Assembly (NCBI RefSeq): GCF_963921235.1
Contig: NC_086097.1
Location: 78,556,001 to 78,620,000, forward strand
Direction: 5' to 3'
Length of the DNA: 64,000 nucleotides
Source: Mobula hypostoma
Taxonomy: Eukaryota
The notes beneath the pieces are model-generated. The model made no database searches and was not told the origin of the DNA. It saw only the letters and a program-made list of their open reading frames with translations. A program made the position numbers and the translations under genes. Numbering within the stretch: the first letter of the stretch is position 1; each line of letters starts with the position of its first letter. This document shows positions 1,071-63,100 of this stretch, one piece after another.

Positions 1071-2107
1071 TTTTATAAATCAGCTGATCTGTACTGGTAA
1101 CTAAGACCCCGCAGCAAATTATATAGTTTTTTAGTCAATGGTACAAACAATAACGTTCAGAACCCTATTTCAAAGGAAATGTTGGCTTCTGTAAAATAGA
1201 TTAAGCCGATTGCTTTGGCATTTGATTAAAATGTTGCAAGGCAACTTATCAAAATCATACAAATTCCCAGAGGCATTTCTGTCTCCAAAAAGAACAAAAA
1301 ACTATATCCTTTCTATACTTTCTCTATGTAGTAAGCTATTCGAATTCCTAGACTTCTATTAACATTGCATTATTACAAAAAATATTCTGTTTTTCTTTAA
1401 ATTTTATTTCTTTTGAGATTTTAGATAAACAATAATTCTTTGCCAGGACTGGAAAATTTTTCTTGCCAACAATTTAGCCCAAAGGTGGAAAGTACGTTCC
1501 AGCTCCAATAAGATAAATACACACCGCAAGTCACCAGAATGCTGATTCCCATGAATTTTTGGCAAGTTAAAAGGCAAATGCAATACAAATCCAAATATGC
1601 CAAAAGAATATCACTCAGAAAGAAATACTAAAAAGTTATTGCAATAAAAATACTTCCATTCTCTACAATGTTTATTTACAATCTTATTATATTGTAACAA
1701 TGTAGAGGACATTTTAAACTCATCCACCCATCTTGCACCCAAATGCAAGATTGGGAAGAATATAAGGTAGATATCTGATCTTATTTAAAGCTTCTCTTTG
1801 ATGCTGGCAGTATGAATTTGTCAATATGATTGATTCCCGTTTCTCTCCTGAAATAACATCAAAATCATATCAAAACTGCTACTACATGAACTGAAATGGT
1901 TCAAGAAGATGGCTTACTACCATCTTCAAGATTAATTAGGATAGACTCCCACATCCATTTTGTGATGGAGCAACTGATGAGTGTAAGCAAAAGAAACAAT
2001 GACATTCATCACTGGATGGTGAAATCTGTGCTTCACATAGTAAAGCAACACACATCAAAGTTGCTGGTGAACGCAGCAGGCCAAGCAGCATCTATAGGAA
2101 GAGGCGC

Positions 2108-2143
2108 AGTCGACGTTTCAGGCTGAGACCCTTCGTCAGGACT
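2108..2143 (-). ncRNA. Minimal type I hammerhead ribozyme (left pseudo-LTR)
   Basis: Minus strand reads AGUC-CUGACGA-AGGGUCUCAGCCU-GAAAC-GUC^GACU: both catalytic boxes, stem I AGUC/GACU, short stem II, palindromic ACGU stem III. Confidence 0.8.
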
Positions 2144-2435
2144 AACTTTAGGAAGAGTGAGTAAGGGATTTGAAAGCTGGAGGGGGAGGGGGAGATGCAA
2201 AATGATAGGAGATGACAGGAGGGGGAGGGATAGAGCCGAGAGCTGGACAGGTGATAGGCAAAAGGGGATACGAGAGGATCATGGGACAGGAGGTCCGGGA
2301 AGAAAGACGGGGGGGGGTGACCCAGAGGATGGGCAAGAGGTATATTCAGAGGGACAGAGGGAGAAAAAGGAGAGTGAGAGAAAGAATGTGTGCATAAAAA
2401 TGAGTAACAGATGGGGTACGAGGGGGAGGTGGGGC

Positions 2436-3719
2436 CTAGCGGAAGTTAGAGAAGTCAATGTTCATGCCATCAGGTTGGAGGCTACCCAGACGGAATATAA
2501 GGTGTTGTTCCTCCAACCTGAGTGTGGCTTCATCTTTACAGTAGAGGAGGCCATGGATAGACATATCAGAATGGGAATAGGATGTGGAATTAAAATGTGT
2601 GGCCACTGGGAGATCCTGCTTTCTCTGGCGGACAGAGCGTAGATGTTCAGCAAAGCGGTCTCCCAGTCTGCGTCGGGTCTCACCAATATATAAAAGGCCA
2701 CATCGGGAGCACCGGACGCAGTATATCACCCCAGTCGACTCACAGGTGAAGTGATGCCTCACCTGGAAGGACTGTTTGGGGCCCTGAATGGTGATAAGGG
2801 AGGAAGTGTAAGGGCATGTGTAGCACTTGTTCCACTTACACGGATAAGTGCCAGGAGGGAGATCAGTGGGGAGGGATGGGGGGGACGAATGGACAAGGGA
2901 GTTGTGTAGGGAGCGATCCCTGCGGAATGCAGAGGGGGGGGGAGGGAAAGATGTGCTTAGTGGTGGGATCCCGTTGGAGGTGGCGGAAATTACGGAGAAT
3001 AATATGTTGGACCCGGAGGCTGGTGGGGTGGTAGGTGAGGACCGGGGAACCCTATTCCTAGTGGGGTGGTGGGAGGATGGAGTGAGAGCAGATGTACGTG
3101 AAATGGGGGAGATGCGTTTAAGAGCAGAGTTGATAGTGGAGGAAGGGAAGCCCCTTTCTTTAAAAAATGAAGACATCTCCCTCATCCTAGAATGAAAAGC
3201 CTCATCCTGAGAGCAGATGCGGCGGAGATGGAGGAATTGCGAGAAGGGGATGGCGTTTTTGCAAGAGACAGGGTGAGAAGAGGAATAGTCCAGATAGCTG
3301 TGAGAGTCAGTAGGCTTATAGTAGACATCAGTGGATAAGCTGTCTCCAGAGACAGAGACAGAAAGATCTAGAAAGGGGAGGGAGGTGTCGGAAATGGACC
3401 AGGTAAACTTGAGGGCAGGGTGAAAGTTGGAGGCAAAGTTAATAAAGTCAACGAGTTCTGCATGCGTGCAGGAAGCAGCGCCAATGCAGTCGTCGATGTA
3501 GCGAAGGAAAAGTGGGGGACAGATACCAGAATAGGCACGGAACATAGATTGTTCCACAAACCCAACAAAAAGGCAGGCATAGCTAGGACCCATACGGGTG
3601 CCCATAGCTACACCTTTAGTTTGGAGGAAATGGGAGGAGCAAAAGGAGAAATTATTAAGAGTAAGGACTAATTCCGCTAGACGGAGCAGAGTGGTGGTAG
3701 AGGGAAACTGATTAGGCCT
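2436..3719 (-). pseudogene. PLE RT-GIY-YIG ORF, left arm (5'-truncated; a local frameshift is compensated downstream)
   Basis: ORF 2436-3737 contains QTKGVAMG, RYIDD, a Cys linker CKWNKCYTC and GVIY...YIGET. A segment after NRVP is out of frame relative to the right arm. Confidence 0.9.
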
Positions 3720-3729
3720 AGGTGTAGCT

Positions 3730-4902
3730 ATGGGCACCCGTATGGGTCTTAGCTATGCCTGCCTTTTTGTTGGGTTTGTGGAACAATCTATGTTCCGTGC
3801 CTATTCTGGTATCTGTCCCCCACTTTTCCTTCGCTACATCGACGACTGCATTGGCGCTGCTTCCTGCACGCATGCAGAACTCGTTGACTTTATTAACTTT
3901 GCCTCCAACTTTCACCCTGCCCTCAAGTTTACCTGGTCCATTTCCGACACCTCCCTCCCCTTTCTAGATCTTTCTGTCTCTGTCTCTGGAGACAGCTTAT
4001 CCACTGATGTCTACTATAAGCCTACTGACTCTCACAGCTATCTGGACTATTCCTCTTCTCACCCTGTCTCTTGCAAAAACGCCATCCCCTTCTCGCAATT
4101 CCTCCGTCTCCGCCGCATCTGCTCTCAGGATGAGGCTTTTCATTCTAGGACAAGGGAGATGTCTTCATTTTTTAAAGAAAGGGGCTTCCCTTCCTCCACT
4201 ATCAACTCTGCTCTTAAACGCATCTCCCCCATTTCACGTACATCTGCTCTCACTCCATCCTCCCACCACCCCACTAGGAATAGGGTTCCCCTGGTCCTCA
4301 CCTACCACCCCACCAGCCTCCGGGTCCAACATATTATTCTCCGTAACTTCCGTCACTTCCAACGGGATCCCACCACTAAGCACATCTTTCCCTCCCCCCC
4401 TCTCTCTGCATTCCGCTGGGATCGCTCCCTACACAACTCCCTTGTCCATTCGTCCCCCCCATCCCTCCCCACTGATCTCCCTCCTGGCACTTATCCGTGT
4501 AAGTGGAACAAGTGCTACACATGCCCTTACACTTCCTCCCTTATCACCATTCAGGGCCCCAAACAGTCCTTCCAGGTGAGGCATCACTTCACCTGTGAGT
4601 CGACTGGGGTGATATACTGCGTCCGGTGCTCCCGATGTGGCCTTTTATATATTGGTGAGACCCGACGCAGACTGGGAGACCGCTTTGCTGAACATCTACG
4701 CTCTGTCCGCCAGAGAAAGCAGGATCTCCCAGTGGCCACACATTTTAATTCCACATCCCATTCCCATTCTGATATGTCTATCCACGGCCTCCTCTACTGT
4801 AAAGATGAAGCCACACTCAGGTTGGAGGAACAACACCTTATATTCCGTCTGGGTAGCCTCCAACCTGATGGCATGAACATTGACTTCTCTAACTTCCGCT
4901 AG
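3730..4902 (+). pseudogene. PLE RT C-terminal half, Cys-rich linker and GIY-YIG endonuclease (open 390 aa; N-terminal RT missing)
   Basis: RYIDD catalytic motif, FLDL, YYKPT, IPFSQFLRLRRICS thumb, CKWNKCYTC, GVIYCVRCSRCGLLYIGET...RFAEH...GMN. Confidence 0.92.
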
Positions 4903-5194
4903 GCCCCACCTCCTCCTCGTACCTCATCTGTTACTCATTTTTATGCACACATTCTTTCTCTCACTCTCCTTTTTCTCCCTCTGTCCCTCTGAATATACCT
5001 CTTGCCCATCCTCTGGGTCACCCCCCCCCGTCTTTCTTCCCGGACCTCCTGTCCCATGATCCTCTCGTATCCCCTTTTGCCTATCACCTGTCCAGCTCTC
5101 GGCTCTATCCCTCCCCCTCCTGTCTTCTCCTATCATTTTGCATCTCCCCCTCCCCCTCCAGCTTTCAAATCCCTTACTCACTCTTCCTTCAGTT

Positions 5195-5230
5195 AGTCCT
5201 GACGAAGGGTCTCAGCCTGAAACGTCGACT
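5195..5230 (+). ncRNA. Minimal type I hammerhead ribozyme (right pseudo-LTR); predicted cleavage after C5226
   Basis: AGTC CTGACGA AGGGTCTCAGCCT GAAAC GTC GACT. It lies ~290 nt after the ORF stop and ~100 nt before the element end. Confidence 0.82.
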
Positions 5231-5539
5231 GCGCCTCTTCCTATAGATGCTGCTTGGCCTGCTGCGTTCACCAGCAACTTTGATGTGTGTTGCTTGAATT
5301 TCCAGCATCTGCAGAATTCCTGTTGTTCACATAGTAAAGGATAGGTTCTAGGAAAAGGCTTGCCATGGCCATAGTACTCTGGCATTCCTATTGGAAAATT
5401 CTGTTAGGTAGGTTCAACTACTTTGTGGTATGTTGCAAAGTATATACGAACACAGTAAATGAGGCAAACACTAATCACAGAGTAAAACAACATTTTCAAG
5501 TGTCAATGAAGACCTGGAAGTGAAATGGAGGAACTATTT

Positions 5540-5727
5540 CAGAAGTGGTTGAGGCACGTTCGATGTTGTCATTTAAAGTTAAATTGGACAGCTATACGGA
5601 CAGGAAAGGAATGGAGGGTCATGGGCTGAGTGCAGGTTGGTGGGACTAGGTGACAGTAGGAGTTCGGCACGGACTAGAAGGGCCGAGATGGCCTGTTTCC
5701 ATGCTGTAATTGTTATATGGTTATATA
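5540..5727 (+). mobile_element. Short CR1-type 3' end
   Basis: gtggttgaggca...catttaa...gaagggccgagatggcctgtttccatgctgta followed by a short repeat tail. Confidence 0.55.
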
Positions 5728-6519
5728 TTTCATTTTTCTATGGAATGTACAAAAATGACCAACCTTGGCAAAGCAGGCTAGTGACAATGATTTACTGAGA
5801 TTTACTTACTCTTTAAAAGATATAATAAGGGAGTTGTAGCTTTACGAGTAGATAGCGCAGAATTAAAAGAAAATTTCACCAACAATATGAAAGACACTGC
5901 AGGAATTTACACCAAAGTTTCACTCAGGGATATCTAGTGTTTTGAAAGATATTTTTGAGTAGTGGAGCATCAGGCAATGGAAAGCAAGTAATGAAGATAT
6001 TAGATGATTTTTGGGCCTTTTTTGTTTTATGTTTCAAATGCCGTTATAAGTTCACTTTAAATTAATCAGGAACTGCAATACCCAATTATTTTCTGCAAAT
6101 CTTATTTTCTAACAAAAAGTTTTAGAAATATCTGGGTGAGGGAATAGAATTTTTATATTCCAATATGGAATATCCTCAGTTTTCTATTATTGATATGAAA
6201 TATGTTTATTAGCATTCCTCTTTTTAAATTTATTTTAACCTTTTATGCTTTCACAAAATTCAATTCAATTACTAACTTCATTTAAAAAGTAAAATCCCAA
6301 GTATTCACAAGACACTGCCAAATATTTAAGTATTTCCTTTTGTTTTTCTTCAATCAATTGTCTAACCCAATTTTGAAAATAGTTATGTCCCAAGATTGCT
6401 GTATTTTGAAAAATGTTTGCTTTGTTCTACTCTCCAGAATCGTTATGACTGAGCTATTTAGGCCTACAAGCTTGATTTAACTATAGTTGAGAGCATACAA
6501 GCTTGATTTAACTTTAGTT

Positions 6520-8724: not shown

Positions 8725-11150
8725 CTAGTCCTTTTGAAATAGTCCTTACCACTGACTCAACCTGCAAATTAACCCTTAGGGAATCCTGCTCAAGAAACCA
8801 CAAGTTCCATTGCACCTCTGATTTATGAATTTTCTCCCCATTTATAAAATATTCCACAGCTTTATTGTTTCTGCCATAGCATATGACCATGCACTTGCCT
8901 ACACTATATTATGTCTGCCACTTCTTTGTCCATTTCCACAAACTGTCTAAGTCCTTCTGCAGACACCTTGCTTCCTCAACACTACCTTCCCCTCCACCTA
9001 TCTTCATATCATCCACAAACTTGAACACAAAGCCATCAATTTCTACATCCAAATCATTGACATATTTCATGAAAAGAAGCAGTCCCAACACCAACCACTG
9101 CATCACACCATTAGTCACCGACAGACAACCATAAAAGACCCCCTTTGTTCACACATTTTGCCTCCTGTCAGTCAGCCAATCTTCTATCCATACTAGTCCC
9201 TTTCCTGTAATATCATGGGCTTTTATCTGGCTTAGCATGCTCACATGTAGCACCTTGTCAAAGGCCTTTTGAACATTCAAGTAAACATTAGCCACTGACT
9301 CTCTTTTGTCTGTCCTGCCTTTTATTTCCTCAAAAACTTCCAACGGATTTGTCAGGCAAGTTTTCCCACTGAGAAAACTGTGGTAAACCATATATATGTT
9401 GTAACTGGGTTACCTGTCTGGACACACCCCTCTGCTGACTGCTCCTGTGGCTCCTCCCACAGACCCCTGAATAAAGGCCACTGTGCCATTGCTCCTCCTC
9501 TCAGTCCAGGGGCAGATACTCAGCATGGTGGAGGTCACATTTTACTGCTAATAAAAGCCTTTCAGTATTTACTCTACTTCCAGTCTTTTGGAGTTATTGA
9601 TAGTGCATCAGAAACCAAGCTGACTATGTCCTATTTTATCATGTGACAAGTACCCTGAAACTTCATCTTTAATAATAGACTCCAACACCTTCCCAACCAC
9701 TAAGATCAGGCTAACTGGTTTATAGTTTCCTTTCTTTTGCTTCCCTCCCATCTTAAAGAGTGGAGTAACATTTGCCATTTCCTGGTCCTCAGGAACCATT
9801 TCAGAATCTAATGATGCCTAAAAGATCATTACTAATGCCTCCACATTCTTTTCAGCTACCACTTTCAGAACACACGAGCATAAGTCCATCTGGTTCAGGT
9901 GACTTATCTACCTTCAAACCTTTCAGCTTCCCAAGTACCTTCTCCTTAGTAATAGCAGTTACATTCATTTCCATTTCCTAACACTCTCAAATTTCTGGCA
10001 TTATTATTAGTGTCTTTCACAGTGCACACAGATGCAAAATACTAATTAAGTTTGTTTGCCATTTCGTTATCCCCCATTACTATCTCTCCAGCACCATTTT
10101 CCAGCAGTCTAATATTCACTCTCTCTTTTATTCTTTATATATTTGAAAATAACTTTTTGTATCCTCTTTTATATTATTGTCTAGCTTACCTTCATATTTC
10201 ATCTTTCTCCCCTTATTGCTTTTTAGTTGCCTTCTGTTGGTTTCAAAAAGCTTTCCAATCCTCTAATTTTGCACTAATTTTTGCAGTACAAATATGTATT
10301 ATATGCCCTCTTTTTTTAATGCTTGCTTTGACTTCCCTTGTCTGCCACGGTTACCTCATCCTCTCTTTAGAATACTCCTTCACTTTTGGAATGTATTTTT
10401 CCTACACCTTCTGAATTGCCCCCAGGAACCCTAGCCATTTCTGTTCTGCTGTCATCTCTTCTAGTATCCTCTACCAATCAACTTTGGCCAGCTCCTCTCT
10501 CATGCTTCTGTAATTCCCTTTACCCCACTGTAATTCTGATACATCCAATTTTAGCTTCTACTTCTCGCATTGCAGGATGAATTATGTCACATTTTGATCA
10601 CCAGCTCCTAAGGGTTCCTTTACCTATGCTCCCTAATCAAATCTGGGTCATTACATAACACCCAATCCAGAATTTCCTTTCACCTAGTGGTCTCAACCAG
10701 AAGTTGGTCTGGAAAGCAATCTCATTGGCATTCTAAAGCTTCCTTCTCTTGGGATCCAGCACCATCCTGATTTCCCCAATCTACCTGCATATTGAAATCC
10801 CCCATGATTATCGCAACATTGAACTTTTTACATGCCTTCTCTATTTCTCATTGTAATTTGGAGCTTACATCCTGACTACTGTTCTCAGGTCTGTATATAA
10901 ATCCCATCAGGGTCTTTTTATCCTCACAGTTTCTTAACTCTACCCACAACAAGTCTACATCTTCCGATCCAATGTCACTTCTTCCTAAGAATTTGATTTA
11001 ATTTTTTAACCAACAGAGCCACCACACTGATTCTGCCTATCTGCCTGTCCTTTCGATATAATGTGTATCCTTGGATTTTAAGTTCCCAACTATGATCTTC
11101 TTTCAGCCATGGCTCAAAGATGCCCACATCATCATACCTGCCAATTTCAT
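8725..11150 (-). mobile_element. Decayed CR1 LINE ORF2 (APE-RT), with a solo LTR nested at 9379-9610
   Basis: Minus-strand ORFs: GYTLYRKDRQ, NVTPLFK...NYKPVSL, KAFDKV, KFVDD. Confidence 0.85.
9379..9610 (+). mobile_element. Short solo LTR (232 bp)
   Basis: TG...CA termini (TGTGGTA...TGCATCA), internal AATAAA, flanks AAAAC/GAAAC (5-bp TSD with 1 mismatch). It interrupts otherwise contiguous CR1 sequence. Confidence 0.7.
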
Positions 11151-21285: not shown

Positions 21286-21479
21286 TTTACGTCTGTGTGC
21301 AATAATTTAGAATTATATCATCATGATTAGCTCAAACAATTATCAAGTGGGTTTGAATAATATATTATTTTGTTCTTAATTTGAGCCCAAAGTCTCTATA
21401 AGTAGTAATGCAGATATTCCTGAAAGGGTTTCTGATTGTATCCTGCAAGTACATAAATATAAACTACTTTGGACCAAAG

Positions 21480-23097
21480 GAGGAAAGGAGGGAGGGGGGA
21501 CACAGGGGGAAGTAATAGGCAGGTGAGAAGAGGTAAAGATTTAGACTGGGGCATAGAGGAGGGGGAGTTTGTTTACTGGAAGGAGAAATCGATATTTGTG
21601 CAGTCAGGTTGGAGGCTACCCAGACAGACAAGGTGTTGATCCTCCACCCTCAGGGTGGCCTCATCTTGGCACAAGAGGAAGCCATGGGCCAACATGTCGG
21701 AATGAGAATGGGAATTGGAATTAAAATGTTTGGCCACTGTGAAGTTCCGCTTGTGGCGGATGGAATGGAGGTGCTCATTGAAGCAGTCCCCCAGTTAATG
21801 ACAGGTCTCACCAGTCTAGAGGAGGCCATGTTGGAAGCAGGGGACACATTGGATGACCCCAGCAGCTTCGGAGGTGAAGCGTTACCGTATCTGGAAGGAC
21901 TGTCTGGGGCCCTGATTGGAGGTGAGCAAGGAGGTATATGGGCAGGTCTGGCACTTAGGCTGCTTGCAAGGAAAAGTGCCAGGATGGAGATTAGGGGGAG
22001 GGATGGACGGACAAGGAAATCGTGCAGAGAGCAATCTCTGAGGAAAGCTTTAGGGGTGGGATGGGGAGGTAAAGCTATGTCTAGAGATAGGATCCCTTTG
22101 GAGATGGCGGAAGTTGCAGAGGATAATGTGTTGGATGCAGGGGCTGATGGGGTGGTACGTAAGGACAAGAGGAACCCTCAAATTGTTAAAGTGGCAGGAA
22201 GATGGGTGAGCACAGGTGTTCCAAAACTGGAGGAGGTGCAGGGAGGGCAACATCAATAGTAGAAGGAGGGAAACCCTGTTAGCATCAATAGTAGAGGGAG
22301 GAAAATATCGCTCTCTCCACGATTCCCTTGTCTAATCATCCCCCCCAGCATGATCCCTGCAAGTGGCCTAAGTGACACACCTGTCCCTACACCTGCTCCC
22401 TCACCTCCATTCAGGGCCCCAGGCAGGTGAGGTAACACTTCATCTACGAACCTACTGTGGTCGTCTATTGTGTCCGATGATTGGTGAGACCCGTTGTAAA
22501 TTGGGGGACCACTTCATCGAGTACCTCCACTCCATTAGCCACAAGTGGAACTTCTTGATGGCCAAAACATTTTAATTCCCATTCCTATTTCATTCCAGCA
22601 TGTTGGTCCGTGGCTTCCTTTTGTGCCAAGATAAGGCAACCCTCAGAGTGGAGGAGCAACACCTTATATTCTTTCTGGGTAGTCTCCAACCTGTTGGCAT
22701 GAATATTGATTTCTCCTAATGGAAAACAAATTTCAGCCCCCCCCCCCATTTCCCACTCTAACCCTTCACTTTCTCACCTTCCTATTACTTCCCCCTGGGT
22801 CCCCTCCTCTTTCCCTTTTTCCTATAGCCCGTTGTCCTCTCCTATCAGATTCCTTCTTCTCCAGGCCTTGACCTTTCCCACCCACCTGGCTTCACCTATC
22901 ACCTTCCAGCTCGCGTCCTTTTTCTTCCCCCACCTTTTTATTTTGGCATCTTCCCCCTTCCTTCTCAGTCCTGAAAAAGGGTCTTAGCCCAAAACATCAG
23001 CGGAATATTCATTTCCAGACCTGCCTGACCTGTTGAGTTTCTCCAGCATTTTGTGTGTTGCTTTGGGTTACCAGCACGTGCAGAATTTCTTGTGTTT
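21480..23097. mobile_element. Older Penelope-like element, again as an inverted pair (minus arm ~21480-22270, plus arm ~22305-23097)
   Basis: Minus arm reads RVPLVLTYHP. Plus arm reads IGETRCKLGDHFIEYL, then a decayed hammerhead (22967-23002) and the tail ccagcacgtgcagaatttcttgtg. Confidence 0.85.
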
Positions 23098-40864: not shown

Positions 40865-41965
40865 GTGTACCGCACACAAGATGCTGGAAGAACTTAGCAG
40901 ATATGACAGCATCAATGGAGAGGAATAAAGTCAACGTTTTGGGCCAAGACCCTTCATCCAGAATGGAAACAAAGGCGGAAGAAGCCAGAATAAGAAGATC
41001 GGGGTGGGGGGGGGAGACAGTAGAACCTGAAAGGTGATAGGTGAAACAGATAACGGGGAGATGGGTAGGTTAGTGGGTCGGGGAGGGGGATTAAGGAAGG
41101 TGAAAGGTGGAGGTGGTAAAGGGCCGAAATAGAAGGAATCTGATAGGAGAGGAGTGTGGACCATGGGATAAAGGGAAGGTAAAGGGCAACAGAGGAATGT
41201 GATGGGCAGTTGATGAGGAGAAGGGGAAAAGGGGAGCCAGAATGGAGAATGAAAAAAAGAGACAAGGGTGTGGGTGCAGAAATTATGGGAAGTTAGGGAA
41301 ATCGATGTTCATACCGTCAGGTATAGGCAATCCAGATGGAATGAGGAGTCGTGAGTATGGCTTTATTGTGGCTGCAGAGGAGACCATGGCTGACATATTG
41401 GAATGGGAATAGGACTGGGAAGTTGAATAGAAATGAGTGGCCTTTGGGAAATCCTGCCTTTTGTGACAGACAAGCAAAGGTGTTCAAGGGTGGCTTTCCA
41501 ACTAACATCCGGTCTCATCAATGTAGAGGAAGCCACACTGGGAGTACTGGATACAATAACTAACCCCAACAGACTCACAGTGAAGTGTCACATCACCTGG
41601 AAGCATTGTTTAGGATGCCGAATACTGACAAGGGAAGACATGTAGAACTTGCTCCACTTGCAGGGATAAGTGCCAGTGGGGAGGAACAAATGAACAGGGA
41701 GTCACATAGAGTGTGTTGGAAGACTTGTGGTCAGCAAGCCCAATACCATCACATGAGAAAAAAGAATATTATTTTTACAAGAGACAGAGTGGAAAAAGGT
41801 ACAGTCAAAATAACTGTGAGAGCCAGTACATTTATAAGAGATACCAGTAGATAGTCTGTCTCCAGAAATAGAAACAGAAAGATCAAGAAAGGGGAGAGAG
41901 GTGTCAGAGGTGGACCAAGTAAGTGACAAGAGGGTGGAAGGTTGATGCAAAGATGCTGAAACTCA
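40865..41965 (-). mobile_element. Decayed Penelope-like element, single arm
   Basis: TWSTSDTSLPFLDLSVSISGDRLST, PDGMNIDFPNF and a decayed hammerhead at 40929-40964. Confidence 0.85.
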
Positions 41966-43625
41966 AACTTGGTCCTTCCATATCGTTTTTCTTAAGTAAT
42001 ATTGCATGACACATATAATGTCTTACTTTTTAAGTAATGTTTCATGAAATATTTGTTCTGTCAGGAGTTAAGTAGTTTAACAATAAAGTGCAAATTCAAC
42101 AATTTTATGCAACAATAACTTTCAAAGATATCATTCAAAAGGTAACAGAATCTAAATAAGAGTTACCTAGATTCAAAGTTGGAATGAATGGTACCTATAA
42201 TCGATTGTTAGAATTCAGATGCATAGTTGATATAACTGCTGATGCCTAGAAAATGGATCATATGACACTTCTTTATCTAGCGTTAACTTTTCCAGAAGGG
42301 TTCAATCTGGTCTAAGTGAATGGTGGAGAATTGGACCAGGCATATTCAGTTGCAATCCAAATAAATGTGGTTTAACTTTTCTCAATATTGGGTGTACTCA
42401 TAACGATGCCAAATATCATACAAATTAATCTCAGCCAAGACTAACATAAATTGGAGCTCAAAGCTTCATATGAGTGCAGCGGAACAATGTCAGGAGGAAC
42501 ACAGTACGTTACAAACTAGCTTTTCTCAATAATTAAAGATATGTTATGCTGATATCATAAGATTTCAAAGGAAAGTTTCAAAGTGTAAAAATGTGTGTGA
42601 AAAAGACCAGGGAACATTCAGCTGCTGATCTGTCCTTTGGGGTAACCTATGAGTCCTCGCTTTCTGGTGATAAAGGCCCTGGTCATTCTCAGCATCTGAA
42701 TAACTCCAGGTGGCTCCCACCAACCTCTGTTGCCTTTATTATGCTTCCTGTTCACCATGGTTGAGGAAAGCTATCAGAAAGGTGTCCTTACCGGACATCA
42801 GTAATTTCATCTTCCAGCTGAACAGAGGAGGAAGACATTGAACAGACAAGAAGGGATTCTCTCATAGAAAAATAGTTTACATTCCACAAAAATCAGAGAT
42901 CCTTCTGCAATCAAGTGACAATTTCCTTACTCCTAGTATTACTACCACTTCACAAGCTACTTTTTAGTTCTATCAGCATTGTTTATAACCCATCCAGATC
43001 CAATTAGTTAAGTGGCTTACTACCTCATCTCTGCATTCCTGGCAAATGACACTTTGCTGAAAAAAGTCAATTTGTACATTACTTGGAGGTGTTTCACTGT
43101 GAACCAGAACTTGAATGGTTTTGACTGCTGTTCAACATCAATGGGTCAATGCAGCACAGAGTAATGAATATCACAATATTTAACAACTCAGAGCAAATGA
43201 AAATAGTTCATTTTTTCATGTTCTTTTGTCAATTATTTTTACTTTATACTCTATGGATATGACACCTGCCAGTAGAAACAGCTCCTTATAAAATTTATAA
43301 GAACTCATTCCATTAATTAACCATGTTCAATTTGTAGCACGCAGAGGTAAAATTCTGTGGATTCAAGTTTTATTCCATTTGAAACCAATCTGAAGTAACA
43401 GTTCAATGTAAAACTATTCAAGTACTGCATTATCCAAAACATCCTTCTCAAATTAAGTGCTGAAGAGCCAGGGTTATTTTTAAAAAGAATGGTGTTCTTC
43501 TGGAATCCTGGCCACCATTTATACCTTCATCAGTAACACATTACCTTGTCGCTAGAACATTAATTTTGACAGACTTTGCTAAACACAGAATGGCAGCCAT
43601 ATTTTTTCAATGACTTTGTTGGTTG

Positions 43626-43735: not shown

Positions 43736-44873
43736 ATAGGTTGTATTGCATGTTAGGACATTTTGAAGTTGTGAAAGATGATTTGTGTATGCACATAGAA
43801 ACAAGACTTTCTTGCATTTCTTTCTCAACTTTAGTAATAATATTGATGCATCTAGGTTGTCACATACATTGTCCCTAAATTCTGGTAATTCTTAAAATTT
43901 TCCATGGTGAAAACAATTTTAAAACCAAGGATAATTTCCACCACTTTCAAATAAAACGAAAGTGTATACATGCACTAGAGTTGTCATGGGTGACTGAATC
44001 ATCCTCCCACCCCCATGTGTCAATGAGTTGCTGAGTTCCTGTGCTCTATCCATTCACCTCATACTCTGTGCTTTTTGCTGGATCTCTTCTTCAGTTATTT
44101 GTTTCAGGTGCTTGTCCTCCAAAATTGGAAGTTACCTCAATGCAATCCTGCCAGAAATAATTTCTCGGTGCCACTATGAGGAGTCCTTTTCAGCTTGTCA
44201 AAGAAACAACAGCCCTTCAACTCAGCCAGCTGTCATAATTGTCAAAATGCAACCATCGGTTGCAGATAGTGGAGCACATCCTAATACCCCAATCTCAATA
44301 CAAATAACTTCATATCTCAATCTTCCATTATAGCAAGCATTCGCTCAGTGTTGCATGGGAACTCCAAAACAAAGTTTCAAATTCTTTTCATTCCATAAGA
44401 TGTAGGAGCAAAGTAGACCATTCGGCCCAATGAGTCTTGTTTATTCACTTGTTTATTATCTAGAAGGAAATATACAACATGCAGCTTTCTTCCAAATCTT
44501 CTCACCAAATGTCTGTCAACTGATTAGTCATGATGCAAGGATTTACGATAGAATAATGGACATACACACCTTTCAAGGTATATTGGTCTGCATTCCAAAG
44601 GAAGAAAAACTGATAAATTCAAGGATTGAGGACAACTCAAAAGAGCTTTTATTTCACAAAAACTAGCAGTACATACACATATATGTATAAAAAATAGGTT
44701 TCTTTAGAGAGAAATATGATATCATGGCAACCCCTCCTCCCCCACCCAACCCACACACCATCCACAAACTGGCAACTGCTACCTTTTATAGATGTCTAAG
44801 CAAAGGAATGTAAAGATGGCTACATCACCTGTGTCATAATAAACATGAACGACTGCTGGACAAACCACCTTCT

Positions 44874-45188
44874 AAGCAACCCACACAAAATGCTGGTGGA
44901 ACTTAGCAGGCCAGGCAGCATCTATGAATGATTTCACTGATCAACCTCCCAGCTCTTTACTTCACCTCTCCCCGTCTTCCAGTTTCATCTATCATCTACC
45001 ACCTTGTACTTCTTCCTCCCTCCTCCTAACTTCTTACTTTGACTTCTCATCTTTTTTTCCAGTCCTGACAAAGGGTCACGGACCAAAACATCGACTGTTT
45101 ACTCTTTTCCATAGCTTGCAGAGTTCTTCCAGCATTTTGTCTGTGTTGCTTTGGATTTCCAGCAAATGCAGATTTTCTCATGTTTGTG
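44874..45188 (+). mobile_element. Mini Penelope-like insertion (short inverted arm plus pseudo-LTR with a decayed hammerhead)
   Basis: TSD AAACCAC(C/A)TTCTAA at 44862-44875 and 45189-45202; left arm aagcaac..cacaaaatgctgg; hammerhead remnant 45061-45096. Confidence 0.8.
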
Positions 45189-45239
45189 AAACCACATTCT
45201 AATCTGCTTTATTAGCTTCACTGACTTGACCTCAAACAC

Positions 45240-51095: not shown

Positions 51096-53044
51096 CAGGG
51101 GTCCCCAACCTTTTTTGCACCGCGGACCGGTTTAATATTGACAATATTCTTGCGGACTGGCCAACCGCGGGGGGTGTTAATCACGACCAGAATATAGGTG
51201 ATAAGTCAACTATAAGTCACTTATCAGTGGCTAATACACTCAATTTTGTTTCTGAAAGGGTTTATATAATGAATTTAATATTAAACACACAGTGCATATT
51301 TTCCTCCCATGAATATACTGATAAGTCAATTATAAGTCATAAGGGGGTTCTTTATGTCCAGTCTATTCTGCAATTTAGTTTTCATTGCATTCATTGCAGA
51401 AAACTCCGCTTCGCGGAGGTATGATGTTGGAAATGGAAGCAACGTCTTCAGTGCTTTCGTGGCTGTCTCAGGATATTCAGCCTTGACTTTGATCCAGAAC
51501 GCCGGCAGAGATTTTATGTCAAACATACATTTCAGCCCACCGTCATTTGCAAGCTTGAGGAGTTGATCTTCTTCCTGCGCTGACATGGATAATTCACTGG
51601 GGACCCATTCCTTTGCACGTCTTGGGTCATTTGCGGTTGGGAAGTAACGCTCGAATTCTGTCGACAGCGAAGATAGGTGTTAGCGCACCAGATATGAGCC
51701 TCAGTCTCTCCCAAATTCCCAGCTAATGTTGGGAACATGTCAAATATGCCCCTGTCCACTCGCCGACCCACAGTTCCAGTTTGGCTGTGAAAGCAGACAC
51801 TTTATCTACCAACTTGAAGACAGTTGTCATTCTCCCCTGAAGTGACAAATTGGGTTCATTGAGCAGGTTGAAGATGTCACACAGATAAGCGAGTTTTGCT
51901 ATCCACTCCTCGTGACTGAAGTGTTCAGCCATTGGTGACTTTTTTCCTGAAAAAATTCTCTGCAGCTGCTCTCTTAATTCAAAAACCCTGGCCAGGGCTC
52001 TCCCCCTTGATCGCCACCTGACTTCAGTGTGTGAGAGAAGGCGTTTGTGCTCTGCATCTACTTCCTTGCAAAGCTGCTCAAACAGATGTGAGTTAAGGGC
52101 TTTTGCTTTGATGTGACTGATAGCTTCAACAATGTCACTCAATAGGCCGTTTTTCGGCTAGCCAGCATTTCCCTGTGTGTGACACAGTGTGTAGACTGGC
52201 ATTCAGGAGCAACCTTTTTGACTCAGGTAGTGAAACCAGACTCGTTAAGCCGTTCCAACAGCTGTGCTTCGATGTCCTCCGCTATGTCATCGATTCTCCT
52301 TGAAACTGTGGTAGCTGAAAGAGAAACCTGTGCCATCTTGTTAGCTGCAGCTTCTCCCAACAGTTCATAGCACATGTCCTTGGCAGCAGGCAGAATCAGT
52401 TCTTCACCGACAGTGAAAGGCTTCTTAGCCTTAGCAATATGGCTAGCCACTAAGTACACCGCTCTCAGAGCAGCAGCAGTTGTGGAGGTGGTGGCTGTCA
52501 GCACTTGCTTCTGTCCCGCTTGCTCACGTTTTTTCTGCTCAAAAAACTCAATGGGTTTGTCTTTAAGTGCAGGGCGCTTGGACTCAAGGTGCCGAAGCAG
52601 TTTTGAGGGCTTCATTGCCTCATTGGACAGCTTGTCTCCACATATCACACACAGGGGGCTTGGAGCGTGCGAGTCACCGGTCGCAATAAAGCCATATTTT
52701 ATGTACGACTCATCGTATTTTCTGTTGAAGGAAACTTTCTTCTTTTTGCAGTCTCGGCCTCAGTTGTCTCTGCATTATCATCATCGTTAGGCCTTTTATG
52801 TCCCCTACCATCTCTTCCAAAGAAACTCTCAAGCGACGTTTGTTTTTTACTCATCGAGTAGTTGTAGGTTAATGACCGACTGATATCCTCGTGTGGGTAA
52901 TGACCTCGTCTGCATTCAAGTTCAACAGTGGACATGACAGGAAATGAGGAAAGGTGCAGTTGACTCATATCGTTTTCTCGCGGCCCGGTAGCACATGCTT
53001 TGCGGCCTGGTACCAGTCCGCGGCCCAGTGGTTGGGGACCACTG
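51096..53044 (-). mobile_element. hAT DNA transposon, Charlie/Buster group, internally deleted
   Basis: 15-bp TIRs CAG(G/T)GGTCCCCAACC; 8-bp TSD TCTTGAAA/TCTTAAAA; ZBED5/SCAND3-like transposase fragments. Confidence 0.93.
51326..52853 (-). pseudogene. Buster-type hAT transposase pseudogene
   Basis: MSKKQTSLESFF start, BED finger C..CGDKLSNEAMKPSKLLRHL, KKPFTVGEELILP, HTEVRW.SRG, LAYLCDIF, LLPFPTSYLREAEFS; frameshifts and an internal deletion. Confidence 0.88.
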
Positions 53045-57670: not shown

Positions 57671-58230
57671 CTAACAAACAATAATATGTAAAACTTCAAA
57701 GTATTATTTGTGTATATAAGAGTAAAACTCATTTTTTACATCTGAGAACCAGAGCATAGGAAGCAGCCGGGTGAAAACATTTATTCTCTGCAACACTGAT
57801 GGAACAGAGTTTAATACAGAAAAAAGATAAAAGAAGAAAAGCTTGAGAGAGGCTATTTAGCATTACATAAAATGTATGATGGTAATTAATCAAGTGGTAG
57901 GGAGTCAACAGATAATCGTGTACAAAATTCAGAAATCACTAGTAGTGCCAATGAATTCCACAGATTCACTACCCTCTGACTAAAGTAATTCCTCCTCATC
58001 TTTGTTCGAATGGATGTCCCTCTATTCTGTGCCCTCTGGTCCTCATAATGGACTCATTGTAGATGTTTCCAGTACTGCACTCACCCACCATAGGAAATCT
58101 TCCCAAATCTACTCTATCCAAGCCTTACAATCTTCGATTGGGGAGAGGAGATCTCATTGAAACCTTTCTTCTAAACTCCAATGAGCACAGGCACAGAATC
58201 ATCAAACACTCCTCGTGCATTAATCCTATC

Positions 58231-59327
58231 AGGCAAAGAGTGGTTGTAGACAGGTAATATTCTGCATGGAGGTCAGTCACCAATGGAGTGCCTCAGGGAT
58301 CTGTTCTGGGACCCTTACTCTTCGTGATTTTTATTAATGACCTGGATGAGGAAGTGGAGGGATGGATTAGTAAGTTTGCTGATGACACAAAGGTTGGAGG
58401 TGTTGTGAATAGGGTGGAGGGCTGTCAGAGGTTACAGCGGGACACTGATAGGATGCAAAACTGGGCTCAGAAGTGGCAGATGGATTTCAACCCACATAAG
58501 TGTGAAGTGGTTCATTTTGGTAGGTCAAATATGATGGCAGAATATAGTATTAATGATAAGACTCTTGGAAGTGTGGAGGATCAGAGGGATCTTGGGGTCT
58601 GAGTCCATAGGACGCTCAAAGAAGCTGCGCAGGTTGACTTTGTGGTTAAGAAGGTGTACGGTGTATTGGCCTTCATCAATCATGGAATTGAATTTAGGAG
58701 CCAAGAGGTAATGTTGCAGCTATATAGGACCCTGGTCAGACCCCACTTGGAGTACTGTGCTCAGTTCTGGTCGCCTCACTACAGGAAGGATGTGGAAGCC
58801 ATAGAAAGGGTGCAGAGGAGATTTACAAGGATGTTGCCTGGCTTGGGGAGCATGCCTTATGAGAATAGGTTGAGTGAACTTGGCCCTTTCTCCATGGAGC
58901 GACAGAAGATGAGAGGTGACCTGATAGAGGTGTATAAGATGATCAGATGCATTGATCATGTGGTTAGTCAGAGGCCTTTTCCTAGGGCTGAAATGGTTGC
59001 CACAAGAGGACACAGGTTTAAGGTGCTGGGGAGTAGGAATGGGCTGCCGGCAACGGTGGTAGAGGTGGATACGATAGGGTCTTTTAAGAGGCTTTTGGAT
59101 AGGTACATGGAGCTTAGAAAAATAGAGGGCTATTTCACCGACCTCCATGCAGAATATTACCTGTCTACAACCACTCTTTGCCTGATAGGATTAATGCACG
59201 AGGAGTGTTTGATGATTCTGTGCCTGTGCTCATTGGAAATCCTAGTAATTTCTAAGGTAGGGACATGTTCGGCACAACTTTGTGGGCCGAAGGACCTGTA
59301 CTGTGCTGTAGGTTTTCTATGTTTCTA
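58231..59327 (+). mobile_element. Young 5'-truncated CR1 nested in the opposite orientation
   Basis: PQGSVLGPLLF, KFADDTK, RPHLEYCAQFWSP; GTTTCTAT tail. Confidence 0.9.
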
Positions 59328-60086
59328 TCATTCTCGTGAACTTCCTTTGGACTCTGTTCAATGTCTGCACATCTCTTTTTAGATAAGGGGCCCAAAACTG
59401 CTCACGATACACCAAGTGTGATCTGATCAATGCTTGATAAAGCCTCAGGTTTATATTCTTGTTCCTATATTCTAGTCCTCTCAAAATAAATGTATTTGCT
59501 TTCTTTACCACTGACTCAACCTGCAAGTTAACCTTTAGGGAACCCTGCACAAGGTCTTCCTAGTCCTTTTGCACCTCTGATTTGTTGAATTTTCTCCCCA
59601 TTTAGAAAATAGTCTACACCTTAATTCCTTCTACCAACATGCATGACCATCAACTTCCCTACACTATGTTCTACTTCTTTGCCCATTCTCCCAATCTGTC
59701 CAGGTCCTTCAGCAGACACCCTGCTTTCTCAACACTATCTGCCCCTCCACCCATCTTCATATTGTCCACAAACTTTACCACAAAACCATTAATTTTGTCT
59801 TCCAAATTATTGGCATATAATGTGAAAAGAAGCAGTCCCATTACAGACCCCTGAGGAACACCACTCATCACCAGCAGCCAGCCAGAACAGGCTCCCTATA
59901 TTCCCACTCATTGCCTCCTGCAGGTCAGCCAATCTTCTATCAATGCTAGCATCTTTCATGTAATACCATGGGTTCTTATCTTATTTATCAGTCTCATACA
60001 TGGCGCCTTCTCAAAGGCCTTCGGGGAATCCAAGGAAATAACATCAACTGGCTGGCCTTTGTCTATCCTATCTATTTGTCTATCTA

Positions 60087-60146
60087 TTCACCAGCAACTT
60101 TGATGTATGTTGCTTGAATTTCCAGCATCTGCAGAATTCCTGTTGT
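60087..60146 (+). mobile_element. 60-bp terminal fragment of the young PLE family
   Basis: 59/60 identical to 5267-5326; TSD CTTTGTCTATCCT at 60057-60069 and 60147-60159. Confidence 0.88.
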
Positions 60147-63100
60147 CTTTGTCTATCCTGCCTGTTATTTCCTCAAAGAGTTCCAACAGATTTGTTACGC
60201 AAGATTTCCTCTTAAGGAAACCATGCTGGCTTTGACCTACTTTATCATGTGCCTCCAAGTACCCCGCAACCTCATCCTTAATAACGGACTCCAACATCTT
60301 CCCAACCACTGAAGTCAGGCTAACTGGCCTATAATTTCCTTTCTTCTGCCTCACTCCTTTCTTAGAGTGACATTTGCAATTTTCCTATCCTCCAGAACCA
60401 TTCTAGAATCTAGTGATTCTTGAAAGATCACTACTGACGTCTCTGCAATCTCTTCAACTACCTCTTTCAGAACACTAGGGTGTGGTCCAGCTGGTCCAGG
60501 TGATCTAACTATCTTCAGCCCTTCCAGCTCCCCATGCACCTCTTCGGTAATAACAACTACACTCACTTCTGCCCCTGACACACTCAAATTGCTGGTATCA
60601 CCACTCATGTCTTCCACAGTGAAGACTGATGCAAAATACTTATTCAGTTTGCCTGCCGTTTCTTTGTCCCCCATTGCTACCTCTCCAGCATCATCTTCTA
60701 TCAGTCCAATATCCACTTGTCTCTCTTTTACTGTTCATATATCTGAAAAATCTTAAAGTATTCTCTTTTGCATTACCTTCACATTTCATCTAGTCTCACC
60801 TCGTAGCCTTTTTAGTTATCTTCTGTTGGATTTTAAAAGCTTCCTAGTCCTCTAAAAATCCACTAATTATTTCTATATTATATACCCTCTCTCTTGCTTT
60901 AATGCTGTCTTTGGATTCCCTTGTCAACCACTGTAGCATCATCCTTCCTTTAGAATACTTCTTCCTCATAGGCATGTGCCTAGCATGTAGCTTCCGAGTT
61001 GCCCCAGAAACTCCAGCCATCGAGGTTCTGCTGTCATCCCTGGTAATGTCCCTTTCCAATCAACTTTTCCCGACTCTTCTCTCATACCTCTAATTCCCAT
61101 TACTCCACTGTAACATTGATATGTCTGACCTTATCTTCAGCCTCTCAGACTGCAGGGTAAATTCCATTATACTATGATCTGTCTCCTAAAGGTTCCTTTA
61201 CTTAAACTCGCTAATCAAATCTGGTTCATTACACAACACCCATTTCAGGATTGTCTTTTTCCTTGAGAGCTCAAAAACAAGCTGCTCTAAAACGCCATCT
61301 CTTAAGCATTCTAAAAATTTCATTTCTTGAGATCTAACACCAACCTGATTTTTCCATTTTACCTGCATATTGAAATTACCCCATGACTATTGTTACATTG
61401 TCTTTATTACGTGCCTTTTCTATCTCCCATTGTAATTTATATCCCACATCCTAGTTAATGTTTGGAGGCCTATATACAACTCCCATCAGGGCCTTTTAAC
61501 CCTTACACTCTCTTAACTCTACCCGCAAGGATTCTACATCTTCCAATCCTATGTCACCTCTTCCTAAGGATTTGATTTCATTTTTTACCAGAGACACACC
61601 ATACCATCTGCTTACCTACCCGACCATTTGATATAATGTGCATCCTGGGATGTTTAGCTCACAGCTATGATCTTCTTATGGCCACAACTCAATGATGCTC
61701 ACGACATTATACCTACCAATCTCTAACTGCACTGCAAGATTATCTACCTTATTGCATATCCTGCATGTATTCAAATATAACACCTACAGTCCTGTATTTG
61801 CCACCCTTTTCAATTTTGTTGCCATGTTACACTTCAACTCATCCCACTGACTGCAATTATTCCATCATCTGCCTGTCTTTCCTCACAGTTTCACTACACA
61901 TTGTATCGATTTGTATACCAACTGCCCCATCGTCAGCCCTATCACTCCAGTTTCCACCGTCCTGCTAAATTAACTTAAATCCTCCCCAACACCCTCTACC
62001 AAACTTGCCCGCAAGGATTTTGGTCCCTTTTGGGTTCAGGTGTAACCCAGCCTTTTTCTACATGTCATACCTTTCCCAGAAGAAATCCCAATGATCCAGA
62101 AATTTAAAACCCTGCCTCCTGCACCACATCTTTAACTACTCATTCATCTGTAATATCATCCTATTTCTGCCCTGACGAGCATGTGGTATTGGGAGTAATC
62201 CAGAGATTGGAGATCTTGCTCTTCAGACTCTTCTTTAACTCCCTACACATACCATAGGGAGTATACTCACCATCTCCCTCCCGTCCTCTGTAAATTGGTG
62301 CCACAACCTCTGGCTGCTCACCCTCCCTCTAGAGAATCTTCTGCAGCTGCTCGCAGACATCCTGGACCCTAGCACCTGGGATACCATCCTGGTGTCTTTT
62401 GCATGGACAAAGAATCTCCTATCTATCTCCCTAACTGTAGTCTCTTATTGCAATTGCTCTTTCCTGCTGGGCCTCAGAGCCAGCCACAGTGCCACTAGCC
62501 CGGCTGATGCTGCTGTGCCCTGATAAGTCCACCCCCAGCAGTATCCAGAGGGTTGCTGAGGGGAACTCTGCCTTGACTACTTACTCCCTTTATTTCTCCT
62601 AGTGGTCACCCATCTACTATCTGAAGCCTGCACTCTGGGTGTGATAATTAAGCTTCTTTACAAGAAAGTAAACTTTAAGCTGCATGTAATAGCAATTCAA
62701 TAGTCATAGAATCTAGATTTGTCCTAGAAAATCCTTCGAGAAATATTGAAAAATATAAATATTAGAACAAATAAACAACAATATCATTTTTCTTAAAAGC
62801 ATTATGAACACAATCAATTCTGTAGAACAGTACTGGATTCATTTCCTTCAGCTTCCTGTTATCTACTACCAGCACCATAAGCTGCGATTTAGTATTTACA
62901 GCAATAGGCTCTTCATCAATGCCAATTAAAGCAATTGTATCTGTCATGTTCTAATAAAATGTGGTTTGAAGTGTTGACAGGATTTTAAGTAAGATAATTA
63001 TAAATCAATGCCAGATGAGAATCAGTACTATGTTCATTAAGATAAATCATTTTAGTTCCCTAGCATTGTTACATTCTAAAATGCAGTGAAGTGGTGAGCC

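Follow-up and report, generated by a model that had tools for sequence, protein, structure and literature searches.

A Penelope-like element (PLE) insertion lies at 2043-5327 of the 64-kb window (the whole stretch of DNA that was analysed), and consists of two 5'-truncated copies arranged head to head, with their 5' ends abutting. The left copy (2043-3719, minus strand) has its 3' end directed leftward and lacks a 32-nt tail, while its 5' boundary falls within 3716-3719; loose contig ends in runs X1, X5 and X14 show that the family extends past 3716 in other copies. The right copy (3720-5327, plus strand) carries the complete family 3' end, and it is at this position (5327) that 320 X1 contigs depart from the family sequence. 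Alignment with blastn showed that the arm at 2043-3615 is the reverse complement of the arm at 3720-5295, with 98.8% identity and 15 substitutions over 1573 aligned positions (11 of them transitions). Three extra bases present only in the right arm (one at 4292 and two near 4401-4403) bring the total of distinguishing positions to 18, some of which are clustered (3183/3184, 2979-2989 and 2148/2149). The whole unit is enclosed by a single 14-bp target site duplication, TTCACATAGTAAAG, whose left (2032-2045, plus strand) and right (5326-5339, plus strand) copies are the only two occurrences of this 14-mer in the window; of 20000 pairs of 30-nt stretches drawn at random 3290 apart, 6 had at least 14 exact bases in common. 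The last three nucleotides of the left copy of the duplication (AAG, 2043-2045) also fit the element, and the final two of the tail overlap the duplication on the other side, leaving element and target with 3 nt in common at the left junction and 2 nt (AA) at the right.

The two copies are not identical in extent. The right open reading frame remnant (3721-4902, plus strand) comprises 393 codons with no start and a stop at 4900-4902, and contains the motifs GVAMG (3721), YIDD (3835), FLD (3961), CKWNKCYTC (4498) and GVIY-CVRC-YIG (4606-4656). Its left counterpart (2436-3719, minus strand) spans reverse transcriptase (RT) motifs B' to E, the thumb, the linker and the GIY-YIG domain, and losses of 1 nt at about 3044 and 2 nt at about 2935 put 36 of its codons out of frame. 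A 32-nt tail (5296-5327, plus strand) is found in the right copy only. The sequence-only reading had described two long, nearly identical inverted arms with outward-facing 3' ends, both bearing RT motifs, a Cys linker and GIY-YIG, inside one 14-bp duplication, and in all these respects it was confirmed. The 104-bp spacer that it placed between the arms, on the other hand, turned out to be part of the left copy: 3616-3719 (minus strand) is in-frame RT coding sequence leading into motif B'. An unrelated loop is ruled out by tblastn with P0001, P0006 and P0008 (relatives are about 800-900 amino acids long), whose in-frame alignments pass through this segment and reach 3704-3719. The head-to-head junction itself (3713-3722) holds two short overlapping palindromes of 8 nt (3713-3720) and 6 nt (3717-3722), within which 3717-3719 may have been inserted by a 3-nt snap-back or may reflect synonymous variation in the left copy.

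A pattern scan predicted a minimal type I hammerhead motif in the pseudo-LTR of the right copy (5195-5230, plus strand; core 5199-5226, 4-bp stem I) and an identical one in the left copy (2108-2143, minus strand), the only two matches in the window to a core pattern that we take to be that of the hammerhead. An Rfam scan at E values of up to 5 returned 0 matches, hammerhead included. Minimal hammerheads of this type are described in the portion of PMC4209133 available.

The features of the coding sequence support the assignment of the element to the endonuclease-containing (EN+) PLEs with a Neptune/Nematis-type linker. As in other EN+ PLEs, RT motifs B', C (YIDD) and FLD lie upstream of GIY-YIG in one frame, and the predicted hammerhead in the pseudo-LTR, the inverted 5'-truncated partner, the one-sided tail in the 30-40-bp range and the short duplication all belong to the same group. 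The endonuclease domain matches PF01541 with an E value of 2.6e-4 and a score of 21.7 bits, just below the curated cut-off of 22.6, and it contains the CCHH motif by which PMC8557442, in the text available, defines EN+ PLEs (GVIY-CVRC-SRCGLL-YIG at 4606-4656, with two Cys between GIY and YIG, and H at 4693 and 4741). The best homologue is an 803-residue protein with PF00078, 53% identical over 98% of the right remnant, and 108 of 120 homologues show the same RT-linker-EN layout; a sequence search of the PDB yielded nothing relevant (1 weak match, E 0.52). The linker CKWNKCYTC at 4498 reads CX4CX2C and conforms to the CX2-5CxxC pattern that, in Neptune, lies between the RT and the C-terminal endonuclease. 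According to the same part of PMC8557442, such a linker excludes Penelope/Poseidon, Hydra and Naiad, and since Nematis has the same linker we name both groups. The earlier identification of a PLE with a Cys-rich linker is thus upheld, with the linker type specified as Neptune/Nematis. The combination of a C-terminal GIY-YIG with two internal Cys, a CX2-5CxxC linker and a minimal hammerhead is that of Neptune PLEs as presented in the accessible parts of PMC8557442 and, for fish, PMC12602865. Neptune PLEs are widespread in vertebrates (bioRxiv 10.64898/2026.07.22.740005, in the part available), and our literature search found no report on this PLE family from a cartilaginous fish.

To place the insertion in an orthologous context, contigs of four of the 23 runs were compared over 1400-6000, namely X1 (organism A), X5 (organism B), X14, and X15 (organism F). 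A 1904-nt contig of organism B joins 2031 directly to 5326 with no gap, its left part (record positions 1029-1660) matching 1400-2031 of the window with 10 differences and its right part (1661-1904) matching 5326-5569 with 3 differences. The site is empty and holds the 14-mer once, exactly what the sequence-only reading had expected of an orthologue, and its clean join bears out the single insertion event that was proposed there. In organism F, one X15 contig ends at 2045 with 34 letters unplaced and another begins at 5374; these ends hold no join and are compatible with an empty site. A contig of organism A (possibly the source sample, so not independent) crosses the left junction as far as 2068 with 0 differences. 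Among the contigs listed, none from organism A crosses the right junction, and none from the four runs spans the centre junction or the whole unit, gaps that carry no weight. We also considered whether the organism A contig, which runs unbroken through 2045, indicates a homozygous locus, for which it is too weak as evidence. The summed depth in X1 was 10-18 on flank bins and 3e5-4e6 on the element, a sign of no more than high family abundance and not usable as a copy number. To the right of the element lies a 190-bp high-copy repeat (5535-5725), present in organisms A and B and skipped in organism F, where one contig links 5534 to 5726.

The window contains five PLE loci, three of which (2043-5327, 21471-23097 and 44874-45185) are head to head. 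The older pair at 21471-23097 belongs to another subfamily (63-71% identical to the young element, with arms about 72% alike) and carries its tail on the plus arm; no duplication was found around it. At 44874-45185 (44862-45204 with its duplication) there is a miniature unit in which a tail-less minus arm of about 68 nt faces a tailed plus arm of 245 nt, within a degenerate duplication of 16 bp that contains 2 mismatches. In this unit and in the one at 2043-5327, the tail-less arms end at one and the same position of the family sequence. The fourth locus is a 60-nt 3' fragment of the young family (60087-60146, in the region 60057-60159), a single short arm that is 98% identical, has a 13-bp duplication and ends at nearly the same 3' position as the right copy. 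A 17-nt filler on its 5' side resembles target sequence. The last is an old arm at 40873-41966 (minus strand) that ends near the tail-less position, and no inverted partner was found for it in the window. Beyond the window, 14 of the 15 joints listed (of 3026) from other copies are joins of left arm to right arm, and with sides of 18-29 letters they provide a hint of a family habit and no count. In X1 and X5, the head-to-head joints with the best support gather at the hammerhead's 5' edge (2142 to 5192-5197), several of them as near-perfect fold-backs.

Neither copy is functional alone. Relative to P0001, some 380-410 residues at the N-terminus, the first half of the ORF, are absent from both. 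The right copy has a P-to-L change in the conserved RT motif GPxYA, and the 438-residue open frame of the left arm includes the 36-codon out-of-frame stretch. The product of the insertion would have been dead on arrival. The open frame had earlier been taken as a sign of recent activity; that claim fails on the N-terminal loss, the P-to-L change and the left frameshift, and what remains of the proposed recency is the youth of the insertion, whose copies are decayed and whose arms are 0.95% apart. Four of the 10 substitutions between the arms within the ORF are synonymous, as expected for neutral decay (neutral expectation 0.33, p=0.74; p=0.006 against the 0.8 assumed for two selected masters). 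The flanks, for comparison, differ by 1.3-1.5% from organism B, which puts the age of the insertion at roughly two-thirds of the split from that organism, provided that the arms were identical at the start and that rates are similar (the element is CpG-richer than its flanks). The insertion would therefore be young, yet much of the time since the split would have passed with its copies already in decay.

Other copies of the family bear on the source of the two arms. An X14 contig agrees with the right arm at 4 of the sites at which the arms differ, and none of the listed differences between it and the left arm falls on the remaining 6 (with no more than 2 possibly hidden). Because it sides with each arm at some sites, both arms must have private changes. 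Conversely, the arms agree with each other at 10 of the 14 tabulated sites at which this contig differs from the left arm (14 of its 20 differences are tabulated; the rest are 2 unlisted, 2 at indels and 2 in left-only sequence). One of these 10 is 2794/4544, where both arms have a letter that accounts for about 1% of the family depth in X1 and X5, and such a rare letter in both argues for one source. At 8 of the 9 sites tabulated (picked from 40; the ninth is 2794/4544) the letter of the window makes up 24-68% of the family depth in X1 versus 1-11% in X5, which points to a subfamily expansion in the lineage of organism A. That the arms were copied from two different subfamily templates is unsupported, given the agreement at 10 of 14 sites and the 4 of 10 synonymous substitutions.

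The architecture had been regarded as unusual, an assessment that does not hold, since it follows the published PLE pattern and recurs within the window. EN+ PLE insertions with an inverted 5'-truncated partner and a one-sided tail of 30-40 bp are shown in the legend to Fig. 2 of Craig et al. 2021 (PMC8557442), and in the accessible text of Arkhipova et al. 2013 (PMC3846280) head-to-head is the commonest arrangement, with units inside 9- and 10-bp duplications. As far as the descriptions available go, our unit resembles Pen2a_Av/Pen2_Av of Adineta vaga in its inverted 5'-truncated copy at the 5' end, its junction palindromes and its pseudo-LTR hammerhead, and the one-sided tails are of similar size (31 bp in Pen2a_Av, 32 here). 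The single duplication is 14 bp here and 8-10 bp in the known units. Our unit is without an upstream direct pLTR or a full ORF, and while the inverted arms measured in these sources are pLTR-sized (181-218 bp), each arm here extends for about 1.6 kb, as far as RT motif B'. The only departure from the published unit is accordingly the length of the arms, that is, of the truncation; long tandem or inverted structures in Pen3 and Pen4 are also mentioned in the available part of PMC3846280.

We consider it probable that the unit arose in one insertion in which both target strands were nicked and then extended with element RNA as template, the two start sites lying some 32 nt from each other. Either junction has the geometry of target priming: the strand expected to bear the free 3' end runs on as antisense element sequence, with matches of 3 nt on the left and 2 nt on the right. 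From nicking to the final structure, we infer the following steps. The GIY-YIG domain would make staggered cuts in the target, 9-14 nt apart. Synthesis of the left cDNA, without tail, would be primed by the top-strand end (AAG, with its 3-nt match to the RNA), and that of the right cDNA, with tail, by the bottom-strand end (AA, with its 2-nt match). Both cDNAs would halt early within the RT region, after about 1.6-1.7 kb, and their ends, bearing complementary AGG and CCT, would be joined by host repair, with the second strands then filled in. Such priming accounts for all the features seen and fits them best, and the tail on one arm recurs at 44874-45185. The sequence-only reading had left priming on both strands and fold-back synthesis side by side. 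The former is the likeliest route, and a simple fold-back of a target-primed cDNA is excluded because neither arm contains everything found in the other. The left arm has some 100 nt more at its 5' end and the right arm 32 nt more at its 3' end; a left-primed cDNA cannot supply the tail, and a right-primed one cannot supply the extra 100 nt.

Priming at two target ends within one event has a known parallel in L1 twin priming, in which both ends prime cDNA and produce an inversion inside one duplication. In L1 twin priming, however, the two cDNAs derive from different parts of one RNA, whereas the unit here holds the same 1.57 kb in duplicate, an outcome that would require two RNAs, a tandem RNA or the re-use of one RNA. 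Among PLEs, the Poseidon element PAc of Anolis carolinensis, which like ours combines an RT with a C-terminal GIY-YIG, cuts and extends both strands in vitro. The PAc protein starts reverse transcription from two neighbouring sites with the tail between them, and a dimeric form is predicted for it (Frangieh et al. 2024, PMC11167929, in the sections available). PAc belongs to Poseidon, not Neptune, and is without the CX2-5CxxC linker present here; moreover, those sections show neither simultaneous extension nor the joining of two cDNAs, do not trace the head-to-head unit to dual priming, and state that the steps of PLE integration past first priming await validation. We give about even chances to the more specific proposal that a Neptune enzyme acting as a dimer left this unit as its footprint, by extending the two nicks simultaneously from two fixed start sites on the RNA. 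Our literature search, in which older Penelope papers were thinly covered, found no explicit derivation of head-to-head PLE units from dual priming, and the accessible parts of PMC9977147, PMC12910113, PMC12602865 and bioRxiv 10.64898/2026.07.22.740005 contain nothing on inverted PLE units.

A less likely course, though one that deserves serious attention, is a self-primed hairpin, in which the template is copied, folded back and recopied off the chromosome, its ends are resolved by the endonuclease with one tail trimmed, and the product is then integrated. The short palindromes at 3713-3722 are of the kind taken as self-priming in the available text of PMC3846280, in that of PMC8557442 the tail is explained by an intermediate that the endonuclease resolves, the family-rare letter at 2794/4544 is common to both arms, and many near-perfect fold-back joins lie at the hammerhead edge in other copies. 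The rare letter and the junction palindromes would be expected from a hairpin copy of one cDNA, or from later gene conversion, as well as from priming at both nicks. The hairpin requires an extra trimming step, as the long arm is without the tail that the short arm has, while the two RT start sites reported in PMC11167929 (in the part available) account for the tail with no trimming; the short primer-template matches at both junctions likewise speak against it. Formation in two steps, with a single copy followed by an inverted arm gained through a second insertion at its 5' end or a repair duplication and homogenised by gene conversion, seems improbable to us: the partial clustering of arm differences and the existence of a single-arm insertion with its own duplication (60087-60146) would suit it, but one duplication surrounds both arms with none seen at the centre, the empty site in organism B is clean, and another pair (44874-45185) has its tail-less end at an identical position in the family sequence. 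That the palindrome is an assembly artefact of fold-back reads, a notion left room by the unspanned centre and whole unit among the listed contigs, is hardly credible given the 18 arm differences and the sequence unique to each arm, flanks that agree with the orthologous empty site to the base, a left junction present without differences in an X1 contig, and older pairs of the same build elsewhere in the window.

Taken alone, the locus has little weight: it shows the usual PLE insertion unit in clean form, with well-defined limits. Its verified empty site, fixed one-sided tail and unequal 5' ends nonetheless narrow the models of PLE integration, and a 3.3-kb near-palindrome whose arms have drifted about 1% apart shows that such structures can persist in this genome. 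If the unit is indeed the footprint of extension at both nicks, the PLE integration pathway would be readable statistically from genomes alone, by drawing on many units, the species-specific subfamily expansion and empty sites in sister species.

Other repeats were noted in the window. Two 101-bp segments (58177-58277 and 59137-59237) form an inverted pair, 99% identical, around a LINE-like fragment of 860 bp; a young inversion or an insertion with inverted ends may have produced this arrangement. Broken ORFs at 51723-52759 (minus strand) resemble what we take to be a hAT/Buster-type transposase. Finally, two long copies of an old repeat (8743-11148 and 59502-61723) are 74-76% alike, the second of them broken by the 60-nt PLE fragment.
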